The notes below the pieces were generated by a model. It did no database searches, was not told the origin of the DNA, and saw only the letters and a program-made list of their open reading frames with translations. A DNA stretch of 18,533 nucleotides, from the IMG/VR virus record IMGVR_UViG_2541047722_000018, positions 1 to 18,533 of that record; one strand, given 5' to 3'. Source of the stretch: a virus (Duplodnaviria > Heunggongvirae > Uroviricota > Caudoviricetes). The position numbers and the translations under genes were made by a program. This document shows, piece after piece, positions 5,861-18,533 of this stretch (its first letter is position 1; each line of letters opens with the position of its first letter).

Positions 5861-8647
5861 ATGAGCACGAAATTTAAAACCGTTATCACTACTGCCGGAG
5901 CCGCAAAGCTGGCAGCCGCCACTGTCCCCGGCGGGAAAAAAGTAAACCTGTCTGCAATGGCCGTGGGTGACGGTAATGGCAAATTGCCGGTGCCGGATGC
6001 CGGTCAGACGAAACTGGTGCATGAGGTCTGGCGTCACGCTCTGAATAAAGTCAGCGTGGATAACAAGAATAAAAACTATATCGTGGCTGAACTGGTTGTA
6101 CCGCCAGAAGTGGGCGGCTTCTGGATGCGTGAACTTGGTCTGTATGACGATGCCGGAACACTGATTGCGGTATCCAACATGGCAGAAAGCTATAAGCCAG
6201 AACTGGCTGAAGGCTCCGGACGTGCGCAGACCTGCCGCATGGTTATTATTCTCAGCAACGTGGCGTCCGTTGAGCTGAGTATTGATGCCAGCACGGTGAT
6301 GGCGACGCAGGATTACGTCGATGACAAAATCGCAGAGCATGAGCAGTCCCGCCGCCATCCTGACGCCACGCTGACAGAAAAAGGTTTTACTCAGTTAAGC
6401 AGTGCAACAAACAGCACCAGTGAAAAGCTGGCAGCAACGCCAAAGGCAGTAAAAGCAGCCTATGACAATGCTGAAAAACGTATGCAGAAAGACCAGAACG
6501 GTGGCGATATTCCAGATAAGGGCGCTTTTCTGGACAATGTTGGCGTTACCAGCCTGACGTTTATGAAAAACAATGGCGAAATGCCGCTTGATGCTGATCT
6601 GAATACATTTGGTCCCGTTAAGGCTTATCTGGGGATCTGGTCTAAAGCTACCTCAACTAACGCAACACTGGAGAAAAATTTTCCGGAAGATAATGCTGTC
6701 GGTGTGCTTGAGGTTTTTGCTGCCGGCAATTTTGCAGGTACGCAACGCTTCACCACGAGAGACGGCAATGTATACATACGCAGACTCGCCAATAAGTGGA
6801 ATGGCTCTGATGGTCCGTGGGGCATATGGCGTCACACTCAATCAGCTACCCGCCCTTTGAGTACGACTATAGACCTGAATACGCTTGGAGCCGCCGAACA
6901 TCTTGGTTTATGGCGTAACAGTAGCTCGGCTATAGCTTCATATGAACGCAATTATCCAGAGGAAGGCGGCTTTGCTCAGGGGATGCTTGAGATCCTCGAA
7001 GGCGGGAATTATGGAAGAACGCAACGTTATACCACTCGCCGTGGAAATATGTATGTCCGCTGCCTTGCGGCAAGCTGGGATGTATCAAATCCGCAGTGGG
7101 AACCGTGGTTAAGAGTCGGTCATCAGTCAGAGAGTCGTTATTACGAAGGTGATTTAAATGTTCTAACCGACCCCGGTATTTACAGTGTTACAGGAAAGGC
7201 AACAAACGGTCCGATGCTGGACACCGTTGGCGCGACACTACTTGGGATACTGGAAGTAATCAGACGTTTTGATGGTGTGTCTGTCTGGCAGCGTTACACA
7301 ACCACAGGGAAATCAGAAACCACACAGGGACGCACTTTTGAGCGCGTCTACGCCGGGAGCAAATGGACCGAATGGCGAGAAGTATATAACTCCTTTTCGT
7401 TGCCTCTGAATCTGGGCATCGGTGGCGCAGTGGCAAAACTATCCAGTCTGGACTGGCAGACCTACGATTTTGTGCCGGGCAGTCTGATAACCGTGCGGCT
7501 TGATAACATGACCAACATTCCCGACGGTATGGACTGGGGCGTCATTGATGGCAACCTGATAAACATCGCAGTTGGTCCGAGTGATGATTCCGGTACGGGA
7601 CGCTCAATGCATGTATGGCGAAGCACTGTAAGTAAAGCCAACTACCGCTTTTTTATGGTGCGCGTTTCAGGAAATCCGGGAAGCCGCACGATTACAACAA
7701 GACGAGTACCAATCATTGACGAAGCCCAGACATGGGGCGCGAAACAGACATTCAGTGCTGGCCTTTCTGGTGAACTGTTCGGCAATGCTGCGACAGCAAC
7801 AAAGCTGAAAACAGCCCGTAAAATTAATAACGTTTCGTTTGATGGAACATCAGATATTAACCTGACGCCTGAAGATATTGGTGCATTGCCAATAACGGGA
7901 GGAACTCTTACCGGCGGTTTAACTGCTGCTGGCGAGATTATTTCCAAATCGGCGAATGGTCTTCGTATTGCCTATGGCAACTATGGATTCTTTATCCGAA
8001 ACGATGGTTCAAGCACATACCTCATGTTGACCAATTCGGGCGACAGCCTGGGAACATGGAATAGTTTAAGGCCGCTTACCATTAATAACGCCAGTGGAGC
8101 TGTTTCTATCGGTAATAGTTTAACTGTTAATGGTGATATAGGAACCAATGCTTGGGTATATGCAAATCGTTTTGCAATTAATAGCAGTACCGGAATGTGG
8201 ATAAATATGCGTGACCAGAATGTTATTTTTGGACGTAATGCGGTATCCACCGATGGTGCTCAGGCATTGTTACGTCAGGACCATGCTGATCGCAAATTTA
8301 TGATTGGTGGTCTGGGGAATAAGCAATTTGGCATCTACATGATTAATAATTCAAGGACAGCCAATGGCACCGATGGTCAGGCGTACATGGATAATAACGG
8401 GAATTGGCTTTGCGGTGCGCAAGTTATTCCCGGCAATTATGGTAATTTTGACTCACGCTATGTGAGAGATGTCAGACTTGGCACACGTGTTGTTCAGACC
8501 ATGCAAAAAGGCGTGATGTATGAAAAATCAGGTCATGTAATCACGGGGCTTGGTATTGTCGGTGAAGTCGATGGTGATGACCCCGCAGTATTCAGACCAA
8601 TACAAAAATACATCAATGGCACATGGTATAACGTCGCACAGGTGTAA
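5861..8647 (+). CDS. H: Tail fibre protein (P2 gpH-like N-terminus, divergent repeat-containing distal region), 928 aa
   Basis: N-terminus MSTKFKTVITTAGAAKLAAA... is the conserved P2-type fibre anchor. It is longer than the 669 aa I recall for P2 H. It has three tandem ~92-aa repeats, a GGTLTGGL motif common in enterobacterial phage fibres, and a visibly more AT-rich distal part. Confidence 0.85.
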   Translation: MSTKFKTVITTAGAAKLAAATVPGGKKVNLSAMAVGDGNGKLPVPDAGQTKLVHEVWRHALNKVSVDNKNKNYIVAELVVPPEVGGFWMRELGLYDDAGTLIAVSNMAESYKPELAEGSGRAQTCRMVIILSNVASVELSIDASTVMATQDYVDDKIAEHEQSRRHPDATLTEKGFTQLSSATNSTSEKLAATPKAVKAAYDNAEKRMQKDQNGGDIPDKGAFLDNVGVTSLTFMKNNGEMPLDADLNTFGPVKAYLGIWSKATSTNATLEKNFPEDNAVGVLEVFAAGNFAGTQRFTTRDGNVYIRRLANKWNGSDGPWGIWRHTQSATRPLSTTIDLNTLGAAEHLGLWRNSSSAIASYERNYPEEGGFAQGMLEILEGGNYGRTQRYTTRRGNMYVRCLAASWDVSNPQWEPWLRVGHQSESRYYEGDLNVLTDPGIYSVTGKATNGPMLDTVGATLLGILEVIRRFDGVSVWQRYTTTGKSETTQGRTFERVYAGSKWTEWREVYNSFSLPLNLGIGGAVAKLSSLDWQTYDFVPGSLITVRLDNMTNIPDGMDWGVIDGNLINIAVGPSDDSGTGRSMHVWRSTVSKANYRFFMVRVSGNPGSRTITTRRVPIIDEAQTWGAKQTFSAGLSGELFGNAATATKLKTARKINNVSFDGTSDINLTPEDIGALPITGGTLTGGLTAAGEIISKSANGLRIAYGNYGFFIRNDGSSTYLMLTNSGDSLGTWNSLRPLTINNASGAVSIGNSLTVNGDIGTNAWVYANRFAINSSTGMWINMRDQNVIFGRNAVSTDGAQALLRQDHADRKFMIGGLGNKQFGIYMINNSRTANGTDGQAYMDNNGNWLCGAQVIPGNYGNFDSRYVRDVRLGTRVVQTMQKGVMYEKSGHVITGLGIVGEVDGDDPAVFRPIQKYINGTWYNVAQV
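6599..7385 (+). repeat. Three tandem ~92-aa (276-279 nt) protein-level repeats inside tail fibre H
   Basis: Repeat units start at 6599, 6875 and 7154, each beginning with an LNT/LNV motif and sharing an ...L(E)VxxxGN(F/Y)xxTQR(F/Y)TTRxGNxYxRxLAxxW... core. Confidence 0.6.
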
Positions 8648-8650
8648 TTT

Positions 8651-9178
8651 ATGCAGCATTTAAAAAATATTACTGCGGGTAATCCAAAAACTGTTGCCCA
8701 ATATCAACTGACAAAAAATTTTGATGTTATCTGGTTATGGTCCGAAGAGGGAAAAAACTGGTATGAGGAAGTAAGTAATTTTCAGGAAGACACGATAAAG
8801 ATTGTTTACGACGAGAATAATATAATTGTCGGCATCACCAGAGATGCTTCAACGCTCAACCCTGAAGGTTTTAGCGTTGTCGAGGTTCCTGATATTACCG
8901 CCAACCGACGTGCTGATGACTCAGGTAAATGGATGTTTAAGGATGGTGCCGTGATTAAGCGGATTTATACGGCAGACGAACAGCAACAACAGGCAGAATC
9001 ACAAAAGGCCGCGTTACTTTCCGAAACCGAATCCGTGATTTTGCCGCTGGAGCGCGCTGTCAGGCTGAATATGGCAACAGATGAGGAGCGCAGTCGACTG
9101 GAAGCATGGGAACGCTACAGCGTTCTGGTCAGTCGTGTGGATCCTGCAAATCCTGAATGGCCGGAAATGCCGCAATAA
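8651..9178 (+). CDS. G: Tail fibre assembly protein / chaperone (P2 gpG, Tfa family), 175 aa
   Basis: Directly after H; size as P2 G; AT-rich like the distal part of H; ends ...[12 protein letters not shown]. Confidence 0.8.
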
Positions 9179-9331
9179 GTTGTATGAGCTCTGGTGGGAG
9201 CTTACATATCTATGGCACAGAGTAAAGCCTAATCTGACAGTCCGCTCTGTGCTAGGAGCGGACATTGTTGCCATCTATCTGCATAAATCTGTGGGGAGCT
9301 GCTCACTTGTGGGGAATGAGTCCTCAACTGT

Positions 9332-9360
9332 TTGCGTTTATAAACACAATCCTTTAGATT
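9332..9360 (+). promoter_or_regulatory. Candidate sigma70 promoter for the cargo ORF
   Basis: TTGCGT (9332-9337), 17-nt spacer, TAGATT (9355-9360), about 30 nt upstream of the cargo start; each hexamer matches consensus at 4/6 only. Confidence 0.3.
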
Positions 9361-9390
9361 CTCTCCTACTATCTACTAAAATTTTATCTA

Positions 9391-10518
9391 GTGAAAATGC
9401 CCAATAATCATATGTATGCAAGTCTACTGTCTTACAAAAACTTAAAGATGGCACATCAAGGAAGTAACTTACGGTCTATTACTGAGTTTTCTCTCTATTC
9501 AGATAGTCAACCAATTGGGGCGGTTGATGATGATTCAGTTTATTGTTTTCTGAATATGTTACCCAGGATAACCAAACAATCCACCGTTGCATCTTCAATT
9601 ACAGTGCGCACAAAGTGGTATAGTGACTTAAATAATATGATTCTTTCTAGTTCTCAGAGTCATACAAAGGATTATCATGGTGGATGGTATAATGATGAAA
9701 TAGCTGCGCTTTCAAGTTTACTGCTTGGTGTCCGTTTTCATGCTGGGTCAATTACTCGTCACTATGATTACTACACAGGTGATTTCGGAAGGATCCAAGC
9801 GGAGAGTTCTTTTCCTCCCGTTTTAGAGTTTAAACATAACAAACCTATAGTTCCTAATGCTATCAAAGAAATTGATATAACTAACCTTAAAGAGCTTAAC
9901 AATTTACATCTCTTAAGTGAAAAGAATTTCAACCATTTAATTAGAGCAGCCAGAAGCTATCAAAATGCATTATGGATATGCGAGTCATCTCCAAATATGA
10001 GTTGGCTATTGATGGTGTCAGCCCTAGAATGTGCGGCTAATCAATGGGCAAAATCCAATGCGTCTAAAGAAGAAAGATTTAAACATGCCAAGCCTGAATT
10101 ATATGAAAAATTAGATACCAATGAATTTAGACATTTAATCTCTATTATTGCTAATGAGTTTAAAGATTCATTTGGGGCGACAAAGAAGTTTGTGGATTTC
10201 TGCCTGTATTTCCTTCCAGATGAACCTCAAGTGAGGCCAAAAGTAGGAAGAATTGATTGGGGAAAAGAATCGCTATCAACAACTTTTAAAAAAATATATA
10301 ACTACCGTTCTAAGGCATTGCATGGAGGACAACCATTTCCTGAGCCGATGTGTTCCTATCCTGAAGTATGGGATGGGTATATTGCTGAACGAGCGAGAGC
10401 ATGTTCAACCTTAGGTGGAACGTGGTTGAATGAAGATGTGCCAATTAATTTAAATACATTCAACTTTATGACCCATTCCATTTTGAATAAGTGGTGGCAA
10501 TCTTTATTACCAAGTTAA
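9391..10518 (+). CDS. Hypothetical protein, cargo gene at the G/FI variable locus; candidate anti-phage defence protein (possible C-terminal HEPN-like R-x4-H motif), up to 375 aa
   Basis: Single long ORF in an AT-rich island: hand count 20/60 G+C at its 5' end versus 33/60 at the start of FI. Start uncertain (GTG 9391, ATG 9397 or downstream ATGs; no strong SD). No transmembrane segments or P-loop seen. Occupies the P2 Z/fun position. Confidence 0.6.
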   Translation: MKMPNNHMYASLLSYKNLKMAHQGSNLRSITEFSLYSDSQPIGAVDDDSVYCFLNMLPRITKQSTVASSITVRTKWYSDLNNMILSSSQSHTKDYHGGWYNDEIAALSSLLLGVRFHAGSITRHYDYYTGDFGRIQAESSFPPVLEFKHNKPIVPNAIKEIDITNLKELNNLHLLSEKNFNHLIRAARSYQNALWICESSPNMSWLLMVSALECAANQWAKSNASKEERFKHAKPELYEKLDTNEFRHLISIIANEFKDSFGATKKFVDFCLYFLPDEPQVRPKVGRIDWGKESLSTTFKKIYNYRSKALHGGQPFPEPMCSYPEVWDGYIAERARACSTLGGTWLNEDVPINLNTFNFMTHSILNKWWQSLLPS

Positions 10519-10540
10519 CACTGTAAGTATCAGTGTTAAC
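10514..10540. repeat. Perfect 10-bp inverted repeat overlapping the cargo stop codon
   Basis: GTTAACACTG (10514-10523), 7-nt spacer, CAGTGTTAAC (10531-10540). Confidence 0.6.
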
Positions 10541-10609
10541 TGCACCATGTAATTTTATATCTGTACCAGACTGGAGGAAAATGTTCGCTTATCGCTCATT
10601 AGGGTCAAC

Positions 10610-10648
10610 CATACTCAAATCTCTCACATTGCAGGAGATTTGAGTATG
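10610..10648. repeat. Perfect 14-bp inverted repeat with 11-nt spacer
   Basis: CATACTCAAATCTC (10610-10623), spacer tcacattgcag, GAGATTTGAGTATG (10635-10648). Confidence 0.6.
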
Positions 10649-10671
10649 AACACGTCACCGTGGAAGGACTG

Positions 10672-10694
10672 GCGGGCGAATTGCCCGCTTTTTT
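10672..10694 (+). terminator. Rho-independent terminator downstream of the cargo ORF
   Basis: GCGGGC-gaatt-GCCCGC stem-loop followed by TTTTTT on the + strand. Confidence 0.6.
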
Positions 10695-10792
10695 GTATCT
10701 GTTGTTTCATCCACTGACCAGCCAGGTCAAATAGCGTCTCATGCTCTGCACAACAGAAAATAGTTGCACCCATTAACCACGGAGTTAAACGG

Positions 10793-11983
10793 ATGAGTGA
10801 CTATCATCACGGCGTGCAGGTGCTGGAGATTAACGACGGCACCCGCGTCATTTCCACCGTATCCACCGCCATTGTTGGCATGGTCTGCACGGCCAGCGAT
10901 GCGGATGCGGAAACCTTCCCCGTCAATAAACCGGTGCTGATCACCAATGTGCAGAGCGCGATTGCAAAGGCCGGTAAAAAAGGTACGCTGGCGGCATCGT
11001 TGCAGGCCATCGCTGACCAGTCAAAACCGGTCACCGTTGTCGTGCGCGTGGAAGACGGCACCGGCGACGACGAAGAAACGAAACTCGCGCAGACCGTTTC
11101 CAATATCATCGGCACCACTGACGAAAACGGTCAGTACACCGGACTGAAAGCCCTGATGGGCGCAGAGTCGGTTACCGGCGTTAAACCGCGCATTCTCGGC
11201 GTACCGGGACTGGACACCAAAGAGGTGGCGGTTGCACTGGCATCGGTATGCCAGGAACTGAATGCCTTCGGGTATATCAGCGCATGGGGCTGTAAAACCA
11301 TTTCCGAGGCAAAAGCCTACCGTCAGAATTTCAGTCAGCGTGAGCTGATGGTCATCTGGCCGGATTTCCTTGCATGGGATACGGTCACCAGTACCACCGC
11401 CACCGCGTATGCCACCGCCCGTGCGCTGGGGCTGCGTGCCAAAATCGACCAGGAGCAGGGCTGGCATAAAACGCTGTCCAACGTCGGGGTAAACGGTGTT
11501 ACCGGCATCAGCGCATCTGTATTCTGGGATTTGCAGAAGTCTGGCACTGATGCTGACCTGCTGAACGAGGCAGGCGTCACAACGCTGGTTCGCCGCGACG
11601 GTTTCCGTTTCTGGGGTAACCGTACCTGCTCCGATGACCCACTTTTCCTCTTTGAAAGCTACACACGTACCGCGCAGGTACTGGCCGACACGATGGCTGA
11701 GGCGCACATGTGGGCTATTGATAAGCCCATCACCGCAACGCTGATTCGCGACATCATTGATGGCATCAATGCCAAATTCCGCGAACTGAAAAACAACGGT
11801 TATATCGTGGATGGCACATGCTGGTTCAGTGAAGAAGCCAACGATGCGGAAACCCTCAAGGCCGGAAAACTGTATATCGACTACGACTATACACCGGTGC
11901 CTCCTCTCGAAAACCTGACCCTGCGCCAGCGTATTACTTCAAGATACCTGGCAAGTCTGGTCACCTCGGTTAACAGCAATTAA
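10793..11983 (+). CDS. FI: Contractile tail sheath protein (P2 gpFI-like), 396 aa
   Basis: GGAG RBS before the ATG; size and order as P2 FI; first gene of the FI-FII-E-T-U-D operon. Confidence 0.9.
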   Translation: MSDYHHGVQVLEINDGTRVISTVSTAIVGMVCTASDADAETFPVNKPVLITNVQSAIAKAGKKGTLAASLQAIADQSKPVTVVVRVEDGTGDDEETKLAQTVSNIIGTTDENGQYTGLKALMGAESVTGVKPRILGVPGLDTKEVAVALASVCQELNAFGYISAWGCKTISEAKAYRQNFSQRELMVIWPDFLAWDTVTSTTATAYATARALGLRAKIDQEQGWHKTLSNVGVNGVTGISASVFWDLQKSGTDADLLNEAGVTTLVRRDGFRFWGNRTCSDDPLFLFESYTRTAQVLADTMAEAHMWAIDKPITATLIRDIIDGINAKFRELKNNGYIVDGTCWFSEEANDAETLKAGKLYIDYDYTPVPPLENLTLRQRITSRYLASLVTSVNSN

Positions 11984-15452: not shown

Positions 15453-15932
15453 ATGATGCTCGCGTTAGGTATGTTTGTTTTTATGCGCCAGACGCTGCCA
15501 CACCAGACCATGCAGCGTGAATCAGATTATCGCTGGCCGTCAAATTCCCGTATCGGCAAACGGGATGCCTTTCAATTTCTCGGTGTGGGTGAGGAAAACA
15601 TCACGCTTGCCGGTGTGCTTTATCCCGAACTGACCGGCGGAAAGCTGACGATGACCACGCTCAGGCTGATGGCAGAGGAAGGCCGGGCGTGGCCGTTGCT
15701 GGATGGCACCGGCATGATTTATGGCATGTATGTCATCAGTAAGGTGAGTGAAACAGGGAGTATTTTCTTTGCAGACGGCACACCCCGGAAAATTGATTTT
15801 ACGCTGTCGCTCACCCGCGTTGATGAATCACTGGCCGCGCTTTATGGCGATATCGGTAAACAGGCGGAATCGCTCATCGGTAAGGCTGGCAGTATAGCGA
15901 CTAAATTCACGGGTATGACGGAGGCGGGATAA
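15453..15932 (+). CDS. U: Tail protein (P2 gpU-like), 159 aa
   Basis: AGGAGG RBS; size and order as P2 U. Confidence 0.85.
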   Translation: MMLALGMFVFMRQTLPHQTMQRESDYRWPSNSRIGKRDAFQFLGVGEENITLAGVLYPELTGGKLTMTTLRLMAEEGRAWPLLDGTGMIYGMYVISKVSETGSIFFADGTPRKIDFTLSLTRVDESLAALYGDIGKQAESLIGKAGSIATKFTGMTEAG

Positions 15933-17095
15933 TGCTGGATGCGCTGACATTTGATGCAGGCAGTACGCTGACGCCGGATTACATGCTGATGCTCGACAGC
16001 AGGGATATTACCGGCAATATCAGCGACCGTCTGATGAGCATGACCCTGACGGATAACCGGGGCTTTGAGGCTGACCAGCTTGATATTGAACTGAACGATG
16101 CCGACGGGCAGGTCGGACTGCCGGTTCGTGGCGCTGTCCTGACGGTGTATATCGGCTGGAAAGGTTTTGCCCTGGTATGCAAAGGGAAATTTACCGTTGA
16201 TGAGGTTGAACACCGGGGCGCACCGGATGTGGTCACCATCCGCGCCCGGAGTGCAGATTTTCGCGGGACGCTCAATTCCCGCCGTGAAGGCTCCTGGCAT
16301 GACACCACGCTCGGTGCGATTGTTGAGGCGATAGCCTCCCGTAACAGGCTGGAAGCCAGTGTCGCGCCGTCACTGGCAGGAATTAAAATCCCGCACATCG
16401 ACCAGTCGCAGGAGTCTGATGCGAAATTCCTGACCCGTCTTGCAGAACGCAACGGCGGTGAGGTGTCGGTAAAAATGGGAAAACTGTTGTTTCTCAAAGC
16501 GGGGCAGGGGGTGACGTCCAGCGGTAAAAAAATCCCGCAGATTACCATCACCCGCAGCGACGGCGACCGTCATCATTTTGCGATTGCTGACCGTGGAGCC
16601 TATACCGGCGTAACGGCAAAGTGGTTACACACCAAAGACCCGAAGCCGCAAAAGCAGAAGGTAAAACTGAAACGCAAAAAGAAAGAGAAACACCTGCGCG
16701 CACTGGAGCACCCGAAAGCGAAACCAGTCACGCAGAAGAAAGCGCCAAAAGTACCGGAAGCGCGCGAAGGTGAATACATGGCCGGTGAGGTTGATAACGT
16801 TTTTGCCCTGACCACGGTATATGCCACGAAAGCACAGGCCATGCGTGCCGCTCAGGCGAAGTGGGATAAGCTGCAACGGGGTGTAGCGGAGTTCTCCATC
16901 AGCCTGGCTACTGGTCGGGCAGATATTTACACGGAAACACCGGTTAAAGTGTCAGGCTTTAAGCGCGTCATAGACGAGCAGGACTGGACAATCACTAAGG
17001 TGACACATTTTCTGAATAATAGCGGCTTCACGACGTCCTTAGAGCTTGAGGTCAGGCTTTCTGATGTGGAGCACGAAACAGAAGATGATGAGTGA
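15932..17095 (+). CDS. D: Tail protein (P2 gpD-like), 387 aa
   Basis: Start overlaps the U stop (TAATG); size and order as P2 D; contains a Lys-rich low-complexity linker. Confidence 0.85.
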   Translation: MLDALTFDAGSTLTPDYMLMLDSRDITGNISDRLMSMTLTDNRGFEADQLDIELNDADGQVGLPVRGAVLTVYIGWKGFALVCKGKFTVDEVEHRGAPDVVTIRARSADFRGTLNSRREGSWHDTTLGAIVEAIASRNRLEASVAPSLAGIKIPHIDQSQESDAKFLTRLAERNGGEVSVKMGKLLFLKAGQGVTSSGKKIPQITITRSDGDRHHFAIADRGAYTGVTAKWLHTKDPKPQKQKVKLKRKKKEKHLRALEHPKAKPVTQKKAPKVPEAREGEYMAGEVDNVFALTTVYATKAQAMRAAQAKWDKLQRGVAEFSISLATGRADIYTETPVKVSGFKRVIDEQDWTITKVTHFLNNSGFTTSLELEVRLSDVEHETEDDE

Positions 17096-17176
17096 TGTAA
17101 TTTATTTATCTGTTTGTTTTATAAGGATAAATTAACTAAAATGGCACCATCAACAAAACCGGAAGAGGTGCTCGCG

Positions 17177-17395
17177 ATGTTTCATTGTCCTTTATGCCAG
17201 CATGCCGCACATGCGCGTACAAGCCGCTATATCACTGACACGACAAAAGAGCGTTATCACCAGTGTCAGAACGTGAATTGCAGCGCCACATTCATCACTT
17301 ATGAGTCGGTACAGCGATACATCGTGAAGCCGGGAGAAGTCCACGCCGTAAGACCGCACCCGTTGCCGTCAGGGCAGCAAATTATGTGGATGTGA
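17177..17395 (+). CDS. ogr: Late-gene transcriptional activator Ogr (zinc-finger, 72 aa)
   Basis: MFHCPLCQHAAHARTSRYITDTTKERYHQCQNVNCSATF... matches my recollection of P2 Ogr, with a C-x2-C...C-x4-C zinc-binding pattern. ATG at 17177 has an AGAGG RBS; the track ORF from 17114 is an over-extension. Confidence 0.9.
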   Translation: MFHCPLCQHAAHARTSRYITDTTKERYHQCQNVNCSATFITYESVQRYIVKPGEVHAVRPHPLPSGQQIMWM

Positions 17396-17405
17396 TCACA
17401 AAAAT

Positions 17406-17430
17406 AGCCCCTCAGTCGAGGGGCTTATTT
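17406..17430. terminator. Stem-loop terminator after ogr (possibly bidirectional)
   Basis: AGCCCCTC-agtc-GAGGGGCT with T-rich tracts on both sides. Confidence 0.55.
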
Positions 17431-17521
17431 ATGGTCGATGTGGACGCTATGTGGACAGTGGTTGACATAAATCCATTTATATCATCAGGTTAGGTGCTTT
17501 TTTGTGACACCATCCCTGTCT
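17431..17521. other. Probable attR region of the prophage (integrase arm-type direct repeats plus core); exact core not determinable from this window
   Basis: Lies between the last phage gene (ogr) and host sequence. ATGTGGAC occurs twice (17438-17445 and 17449-17456) with 11-bp periodicity. Confidence 0.35.
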
Positions 17522-17548
17522 TCCCCCACATGATGTGGGGGTTTTTTT
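17522..17548 (+). terminator. Rho-independent terminator, probably the host cpxP (CpxQ 3'-UTR sRNA) terminator
   Basis: CCCCCAC-atgat-GTGGGGG followed by eight T; located just upstream of fieF, where cpxP sits in E. coli. Confidence 0.6.
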
Positions 17549-17630
17549 TATCCTCAATTTGCCTGCTGCTTAATGCATTGCAGATGATTTGCTTCCGTTA
17601 TACTACCGTCAGTTGATAGCGGGAGTATTT

Positions 17631-18533
17631 ATGAATCAATCTTATGGACGGCTGGTCAGTCGGGCGGCGATTGCTGCGACGGCGATGGCTTCGCTGCTAT
17701 TGCTGATTAAAATTTTTGCATGGTGGTATACCGGGTCGGTGAGTATTCTCGCCGCGCTGGTGGATTCGCTGGTGGATATCGGCGCGTCGTTGACGAATTT
17801 ACTGGTGGTGCGATATTCCCTGCAACCTGCCGACGATAATCACTCGTTTGGTCACGGTAAAGCTGAGTCCCTCGCGGCGCTGGCGCAAAGTATGTTTATC
17901 TCCGGTTCGGCACTATTCCTGTTTTTGACGGGTATTCAACATCTGGTATCTCCAACACCGATGACAGATCCAGGCGTCGGGGTTATCGTGACAATTGTGG
18001 CGCTAATTTGTACGATTATCCTTGTCTCGTTTCAGCGTTGGGTGGTGCGCCGGACGCAAAGCCAGGCGGTGCGGGCTGATATGCTACATTACCAGTCTGA
18101 TGTTATGATGAACGGCGCAATTCTGCTGGCGCTGGGGTTGTCCTGGTACGGCTGGCATCGCGCCGATGCTCTGTTTGCATTGGGGATCGGCATCTATATT
18201 TTATATAGCGCGTTACGCATGGGATATGAGGCGGTACAGTCATTACTGGATCGCGCATTGCCTGATGAGGAACGGCAAGAAATTATTGATATCGTGACTT
18301 CCTGGCCGGGTGTTAGCGGCGCTCACGATCTTCGCACGCGGCAGTCAGGGCCGACCCGCTTTATTCAGATTCATTTGGAAATGGAAGACTCTCTGCCTTT
18401 GGTTCAGGCACATATGGTGGCGGATCAGGTAGAGCAGGCTATTTTACGGCGTTTTCCGGGATCGGATGTGATTATCCATCAGGACCCCTGTTCCGTCGTA
18501 CCCAGGGAGGGTAAACGGTCTATGCTTTCATAA
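17631..18533 (+). CDS. fieF: Cation-diffusion-facilitator family ferrous-iron/zinc efflux transporter FieF (YiiP)
   Basis: [54 protein letters not shown]... matches my recollection of E. coli FieF; GGGAG RBS before the ATG at 17631; the track start at 17589 is an over-extension; the window ends at the stop codon. Confidence 0.9.

Follow-up and report, generated by a model that had tools for sequence, protein, structure and literature searches.

Integrases that insert at the 3' ends of tRNA, tmRNA and sRNA genes and regenerate the gene that they enter are known from phage 186 (tRNA-Ile), from Fels-2 and SopEPhi (ssrA) and from P2-type prophages at cyaR and rybB, the last two sites being listed in Table 2 of the E. 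coli W genome paper (PMC3032704). In these systems the 3' part of the small-RNA gene is duplicated on the phage, the gene is restored near int (attL), a partial copy is found at attR, and the core is as long as gene restoration needs (PMC3448106); the same regeneration argument has been made for the long cores of the relatives that target tRNA genes (PMC3448106). The P2-like (Peduovirus) phages WPhi and Yersinia/E. coli L-413C have been placed at MG1655 coordinate 4104392, with identical cores (PMC3448106), and the entry 'cpxP-fieF: Wphi1 (P2)' appears in the E. coli W genome paper (PMC3032704). Prophages of roughly 31 kb located between cpxP and fieF have been reported in O157:H7 and Salmonella Infantis. 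The wording '47-nt core' has reportedly been published for this attachment site. CpxQ, for its part, is an Hfq-dependent sRNA that is cut by RNase E from the 3' UTR of cpxP; it is extremely conserved (PMC9438474), its U7 pairs with nhaB (PMC10250213), and the C11G change abolishes cfa repression, the 5' end being the seed for both nhaB and cfa (PMC6755755).

The cpxP-fieF attachment site, the CpxQ sRNA, and the principle of entering a small-RNA gene in its 3' part and regenerating it are thus all already known. The P2 phage literature that we found predates CpxQ, gives the site as a position between genes and leaves CpxQ unmentioned, and a literature search whose coverage excluded most subscription journals found no paper tying the WPhi core, or a P2-like integrase or prophage, to CpxQ. 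What our analyses provide is a useful annotation link and not a discovery, viz. that the 'cpxP-fieF intergenic' site of WPhi-type phages is the CpxQ gene. CpxQ joins the small-RNA genes that serve as phage integration sites, and its identity with the site explains both the length of the core (47 bp) and the usability of the site across the Enterobacterales. The locus described below shares with the integrases listed above the phage copy of the 3' part of the gene, the restored gene near int, the partial copy at attR and the core of matching length; it differs from them in that the target is a 3' UTR-derived sRNA sharing a transcript with a protein-coding gene, whereas in those systems it is a free-standing RNA gene.

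The window, by which we mean the whole stretch of 18,533 nucleotides that was analysed, holds the right two-thirds of a P2-like (Peduovirus) prophage, then a short non-coding stretch and then a complete host fieF. The prophage genes present are those for lysis, baseplate, tail fibre, sheath, tube, tape measure, U, D and ogr. The next to last of the P2-type right-end genes is the tail gene D of the late control D family (an ORF at 15932-17095, + strand, annotated 'phage late control D family protein' in near-identical prophages), and the final phage gene ahead of the attachment site is ogr, a zinc-finger activator of the late genes (17177-17395, + strand; Pfam Ogr_Delta, E=2e-21; ogrK at equivalent coordinates in the lysogen locus L002). 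A bidirectional terminator-like hairpin follows ogr at 17406-17425 (fold energy -16.7 kcal/mol, z = -3.99), and beyond it lie the phage P arm (17426-17505), the 47-bp common core GACACCATCCCTGTCTTCCCCCACATGATGTGGGGGTTTTTTTTATC (17506-17552), the unchanged host spacer upstream of fieF, or B' arm (17553-17630), which is identical to unoccupied sites except for one SNP, and fieF itself, which encodes a CDF cation-efflux transporter (17631-18533; match to E. coli genomes and annotation in relatives), all on the + strand.

Further to the left, the P2 Z/fun cargo hotspot, which separates the genes for tail-fibre assembly and for the sheath, is occupied by an ORF of 375 aa (9391-10518, + strand), whose G+C content is low (0.34-0.39 vs 0.52-0.59 in the flanks) and which had no match in Pfam, PADLOC, PHROGs, NCBIfam or PDB sequences. 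Of the 5426 complete E. coli genomes, only 4 carry 80% or more of window positions 8600-10800. This ORF is an orphan cargo gene, and it may be a defence or moron gene.

Identity of the element with CpxQ and with attR

The original prediction held that the sequence near the right end of the window resembles the cpxP terminator and CpxQ and that, if the phage core overlaps this element, the sequence just upstream of ACACC would be of phage origin. The resemblance, the overlap and the phage origin are all borne out. Window positions 17506-17549 (+ strand) are a copy of nt 15-58 of E. coli CpxQ, terminator included, with the stem at 17523-17541 and the U-tract at 17542-17549, and the 47-bp att core covers exactly this part of CpxQ. 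The sequence to its left is P-arm DNA, identical in L-413C and near-identical in WPhi. The string that had been singled out is present as ACACC...TTTTTTTT, its span being 17507-17549, so that the end given for it (17548) was one base short; the upstream string GGTTAGGTGCTTTTTTGTG was found at 17488-17506.

The numbering of CpxQ used here was fixed by the published functional positions U7 and C11, which are compatible with no other 5' end than the first U of UUUUCCUUGCC (UUUUCC). On this numbering, nt 1-14 of CpxQ (UUUUCCUUGCCAUA), which contain U7 and C11, are absent from the window copy, and the 5' seed is replaced by the final bases of the P arm, GGTGCTTTTTTGT. The 3' module, i.e. the pyrimidine-rich stretch and the Rho-independent terminator that form the Hfq-binding end, is kept and is identical over 44 nt. 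A second CpxQ seed reportedly lies within the core. The terminator is of a strong intrinsic type, with a G+C-rich stem of 8-9 bp followed by U8. The native copy of CpxQ follows cpxP, whereas the window copy does not and has lost the context of the native processing site.

An alignment with the spacer between cpxP and fieF shows identity that is unbroken from 17506 through the terminator and into fieF. The unoccupied spacer used was that of an E. coli B derivative (locus L001), in which the end of cpxP lies 9 nt ahead of TTTTCCTTGCCATAGACACCATCCCTGTCTTCCCCCACATGATGTGGGGGTTTTTTTT and fieF starts 81 nt beyond; cpxP precedes fieF in E. coli, as had been stated, in our check of gene order. There are zero mismatches between this spacer and the window from 17506 (GACACC...) on, and no similarity was found in the alignment to the left of 17506. 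In the comparison with K-12, a single base of the terminator loop differs (ATGCTG in K-12, ATGATG in the window). The stretch is matched at 98.5-100% by all 5426 complete E. coli genomes, and where the site is unoccupied the match begins at 17506. A chance resemblance to CpxQ, or a terminator belonging to some other gene in a prophage integrated at another locus, is ruled out: the core is identical at 47 of 47 positions, the match is continuous through fieF in all 5426 genomes, and cpxP sits at the opposite end of the prophage.

The assignment to a WPhi/L-413C-type attachment site is based upon the comparison of occupied, unoccupied and phage-borne sites. The 47-bp core is identical in attB (L001), in attP (L-413C, L005; WPhi, L007), in attL (L004, L006 and L010, the sequences lined up being those of strains SF-088, LR-45 and N21) and in attR (the window and L002), and around it the alignment displays the four-way POP'/BOB'/BOP'/POB' pattern. 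The identity with the attP of WPhi (AJ245959; L007 253-299), as with that of L-413C, extends over 47 of 47 positions. The free phages L-413C, vB_YpM_22, P24B2, R18C, fiAA91-ss and WPhi match the window from ogr to 17552 and then continue into the P' arm and int, and the order in free L-413C and WPhi is ogr, P arm, core, P' arm, int. The P arm contains two direct repeats of ATGTGGAC (17438-17445 and 17449-17456), the same pair is found on the P' arm of attP, and these repeats fit the arm-site consensus of P2-type integrases, tgTGGaCa (PMC3448106). The sequence GGUGCUUUUUUGUGACACC spans the junction of P arm and core, and the junction sequence GGTGCTTTTTTGTGACACC is specific to attR and attP. 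The left end of the prophage lies outside the window; in SF-088, whose prophage is 100% identical to the window across the junction, the integrase is 98% identical to WPhi Int, and in N21 an integrase of 326 aa adjoins cpxP.

The window prophage shares with WPhi and L-413C the core, the cpxP-fieF position, the D-ogr-att-int layout and the arm repeats. The P' arm of its group is of the L-413C type and that of WPhi is about 88% identical to it, with nothing essential differing. A comparison with attL had been suggested for reading the junction in the window; the junction is attR and not attL. The element is the attR (P arm, common core and B' arm) of a WPhi/L-413C-type P2-like prophage in the CpxQ gene, and the CpxQ copy that it contains is in all likelihood a plain by-product of integration.

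A 17-nt inverted repeat (14 of 17 positions complementary) was also observed between the end of ogr (17388-17404, GGATGTGATCACAAAAA) and the junction of P arm and core (17499-17515, TTTTTGTGACACCATCC), and it is present in the attP of L-413C as well. It may be due to chance, a rough estimate being of the order of 0.03-0.3 such pairs expected in 221 nt, or it may be connected with recombination or with an RNA structure.

Strand exchange and the two copies of CpxQ

Because the core is identical in most strains, the point of strand exchange is normally invisible. It becomes traceable in K-12-type hosts, where the terminator loop has C (ATGCTG) and the phages have A. An attR with the C allele is matched at 100% in many lysogens, and no attL with the C allele was found among complete E. 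coli genomes, the best match being 98.9% with one mismatch. In the lysogens M217 and 4/2-1, which were read directly, A is found at attL and C at attR. These alleles place the strand exchange 5' of window position 17533, within the interval 17506-17532 (+ strand), and it follows that the CpxQ in use has a terminator supplied by the phage and that attR keeps the host original. The 'host-side sequence' of the original prediction is correct in this limited sense, that attR retains the original host terminator. Mapping of the crossover by means of Rosenbergiella, Citrobacter and Salmonella was set aside in favour of the E. coli loop alleles, the hints being in conflict (exchange 3' of the hairpin in R. 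metrosideri, 5' of it in Citrobacter NCU1).

A full CpxQ of 58 nt, intact in sequence, is found after cpxP at attL in all five lysogens examined (viz. SF-088, LR-45, N21, M217 and 4/2-1). The window itself is without attL, and these copies were read in close relatives; N21 is the genome closest to the window (99.9% identical over window 8600-10800), and its two cores are 31,219 bp apart. What keeps CpxQ intact at attL is the phage's own exact copy of the 47-bp core, which consists of CpxQ nt 15-58 and ATC. The window copy lies behind ogr and not in the 3' UTR of cpxP; about 31 kb separate it from cpxP and from the CpxR-dependent promoter of that gene.

These observations are best explained by a scheme in which the tyrosine integrase of a WPhi/L-413C-type phage targets the gene of the 3' UTR-derived sRNA CpxQ, with a crossover within the first 27 bp of the core. 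One product, at attL, joins cpxP and the 5' seed of the host to the terminator supplied by the phage and yields a sequence-intact CpxQ. In the other, at attR and seen in the window, the phage P arm is fused to the original host terminator, leaving a partial duplicate devoid of the cpxP promoter, the native RNase E site and the 5' seed, whose hairpin would at most terminate transcription leaving the prophage past ogr. Judging from these sequence features, the attR copy is most likely silent and not a regulator in its own right. The proposal that the prophage had re-modelled CpxQ is accordingly true of the displaced duplicate, which does have a phage 5' part, but not of the cell's Cpx-regulated sRNA, since the attL copy is intact.

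In LR-45, the base of the terminator stem reads GGGGT instead of GGGGG in the attR copy (L132 2468-2514), and the attL copy of the same strain is intact. This single case fits a relaxed constraint on the displaced copy.

Transcription around attR and attL

A sigma-70 promoter scan found no promoter-like site in window positions 17000-17700, and the CpxQ copy is preceded by the terminator-like hairpin of ogr; an RNA from the chimeric attR would therefore need transcription that is not predicted by the sequence. The ogr terminator (17406-17425) has a T-tract that is weak on the + strand (TTATTTAT) and better on the - strand, so that read-through into the CpxQ terminator is possible, and the chimera retains the terminator fold, with -16.5 kcal/mol vs -17.4 kcal/mol for native CpxQ. 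Both features would suit a different reading, in which read-through from ogr and the late operon stops at the CpxQ terminator and is trimmed, e.g. at the U-rich GGUGC/UUUUUU, to an Hfq-binding RNA with a phage 5' end, acting as a seed-altered CpxQ or as an Hfq competitor, and being produced from attP as well during lytic growth. The consensus of RNase E sites is RN/WUU, and the U-rich stretch ahead of the core resembles such a site. CpxQ also dominates the host-lambda sRNA chimeras during lambda infection (bioRxiv 10.1101/2024.10.31.621285), which makes a phage interest in CpxQ conceivable. Against this stand the absence of a promoter-like site, the fact that the region 5' of the core is accounted for by recombination functions (the arm repeats), and the junction of a second integrase lineage, which is unrelated in sequence (GGATTTCTT|CACC) and indicates no conservation at the RNA level 5' of the core. 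We therefore regard expression of the chimeric copy as improbable. A vestigial CpxQ seed at the end of the P arm was considered and dropped, as the alignment was unconvincing and the junction of the second lineage is unrelated.

A more mundane role for the hairpin would be that of a terminator, which at attR would insulate fieF from transcription at the right end of the prophage and in attP would provide a second stop, as a back-up, between the convergent genes ogr and int. The hairpin is strong; in the lysogen it separates ogr from fieF, and in the phage it separates ogr from int. Against such a role, ogr has a terminator of its own, and regeneration of CpxQ is a simpler explanation for the length of the core. 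On these sequence grounds, a terminator function is possible though somewhat doubtful, and it would be compatible with the preferred explanation of the attR copy as a by-product of integration.

On the int strand of attL in SF-088 (L004 34535-34650), no terminator-like site was predicted between the stop codon of int and the core, and in lysogens transcripts of the C-int operon could for this reason pass through CpxQ and reach cpxP in antisense orientation. C-int transcripts made by the free phage would encounter the ogr terminator from its minus-strand side. It is conceivable, but in our view quite unlikely, that lysogeny by WPhi-type phages would affect the noncoding arm of the Cpx response to envelope stress, either through a seedless chimeric Hfq-binding RNA (from attR, or from attP in infection) or through constitutive C-int antisense transcription across CpxQ and cpxP at attL. 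The locus would be of greater interest only if such a chimera were expressed from attR or such antisense transcription took place at attL.

Distribution and annotation of the site

The right junction (attR) was found in 788 and the left one (attL) in 793 of the 5426 complete E. coli genomes, or about 14.5%. In this share of genomes the working CpxQ ends in a terminator made of phage DNA, and fieF has beside it a further fragment of CpxQ that lacks the seed. The 44-nt part common to both copies makes reads ambiguous in sRNA-seq, RIL-seq and CLASH on such strains, and the duplication bears upon probe design and upon sRNA gene predictions that might call a second CpxQ.

With permissive settings Rfam gave sub-threshold matches only, nothing in the window reaching gathering score. 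The sole family with a notable score is RF02628 (Hrs1), with 31.8 bits on the window and 44.5 bits on intact E. coli CpxQ; the window score is under the gathering threshold of 56.4, and the match (17483-17549) is on the minus strand, opposite to CpxQ. No family in Rfam 15 captures E. coli CpxQ, and since it remains below threshold, Rfam-based pipelines leave it unannotated. In Erwinia and Pantoea (L052 4248-4323, L011 2135-2207, L062 956-1030), RF02628, which is named 'Hfq-regulated sRNA 1', does reach gathering score over the CpxQ homologue, on the opposite strand, and its consensus opens with A7-8 and then a hairpin, as a terminator in reverse complement would. The strand modelled by RF02628 appears to be the wrong one for CpxQ.

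Being so extremely conserved, CpxQ offers an attachment site that is both convenient and portable. At least 120 loci in species representatives of the Enterobacterales contain an exact match to the 20-mer CACCATCCCTGTCTTCCCCC; among the 124 copies found, the upstream sequence is native in 112 and is a phage-type arm in 12, and the native 16-mer TTTTCCTTGCCATAGA is invariant in 111 of the 112 native copies. In this search of one genome per species, the junction of P arm and core had no exact match, and the core alone was widespread. In the second integrase lineage (67% identical), whose members include Enterobacter phage phiT5282H and Salmonella phages SEN4 and SEN5, the core is used in a version of 45 bp and the arms are unrelated.

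In Rosenbergiella, Tatumella and Citrobacter amalonaticus, a native copy of the CpxQ core and a copy with a phage-type arm are separated by only 1.25-4.5 kb (L019 2663/5281, L083 5822/7074, L103 898/5430 and L109 1047/2885; further loci L015 and L053). This close spacing suggests that the same site there holds prophages that have decayed, or else small integrative elements. A P-core-P' junction inside the chromosome of Salmonella enterica s1 suggests tandem prophages. Lastly, the 32,330-bp circular sequence NZ_JBQJRQ010000002.1 (L003), deposited as E. coli 'plasmid unnamed3', is a complete circular P2-like phage genome, in which an attP with the 45-bp version of the CpxQ core adjoins the phage integrase.
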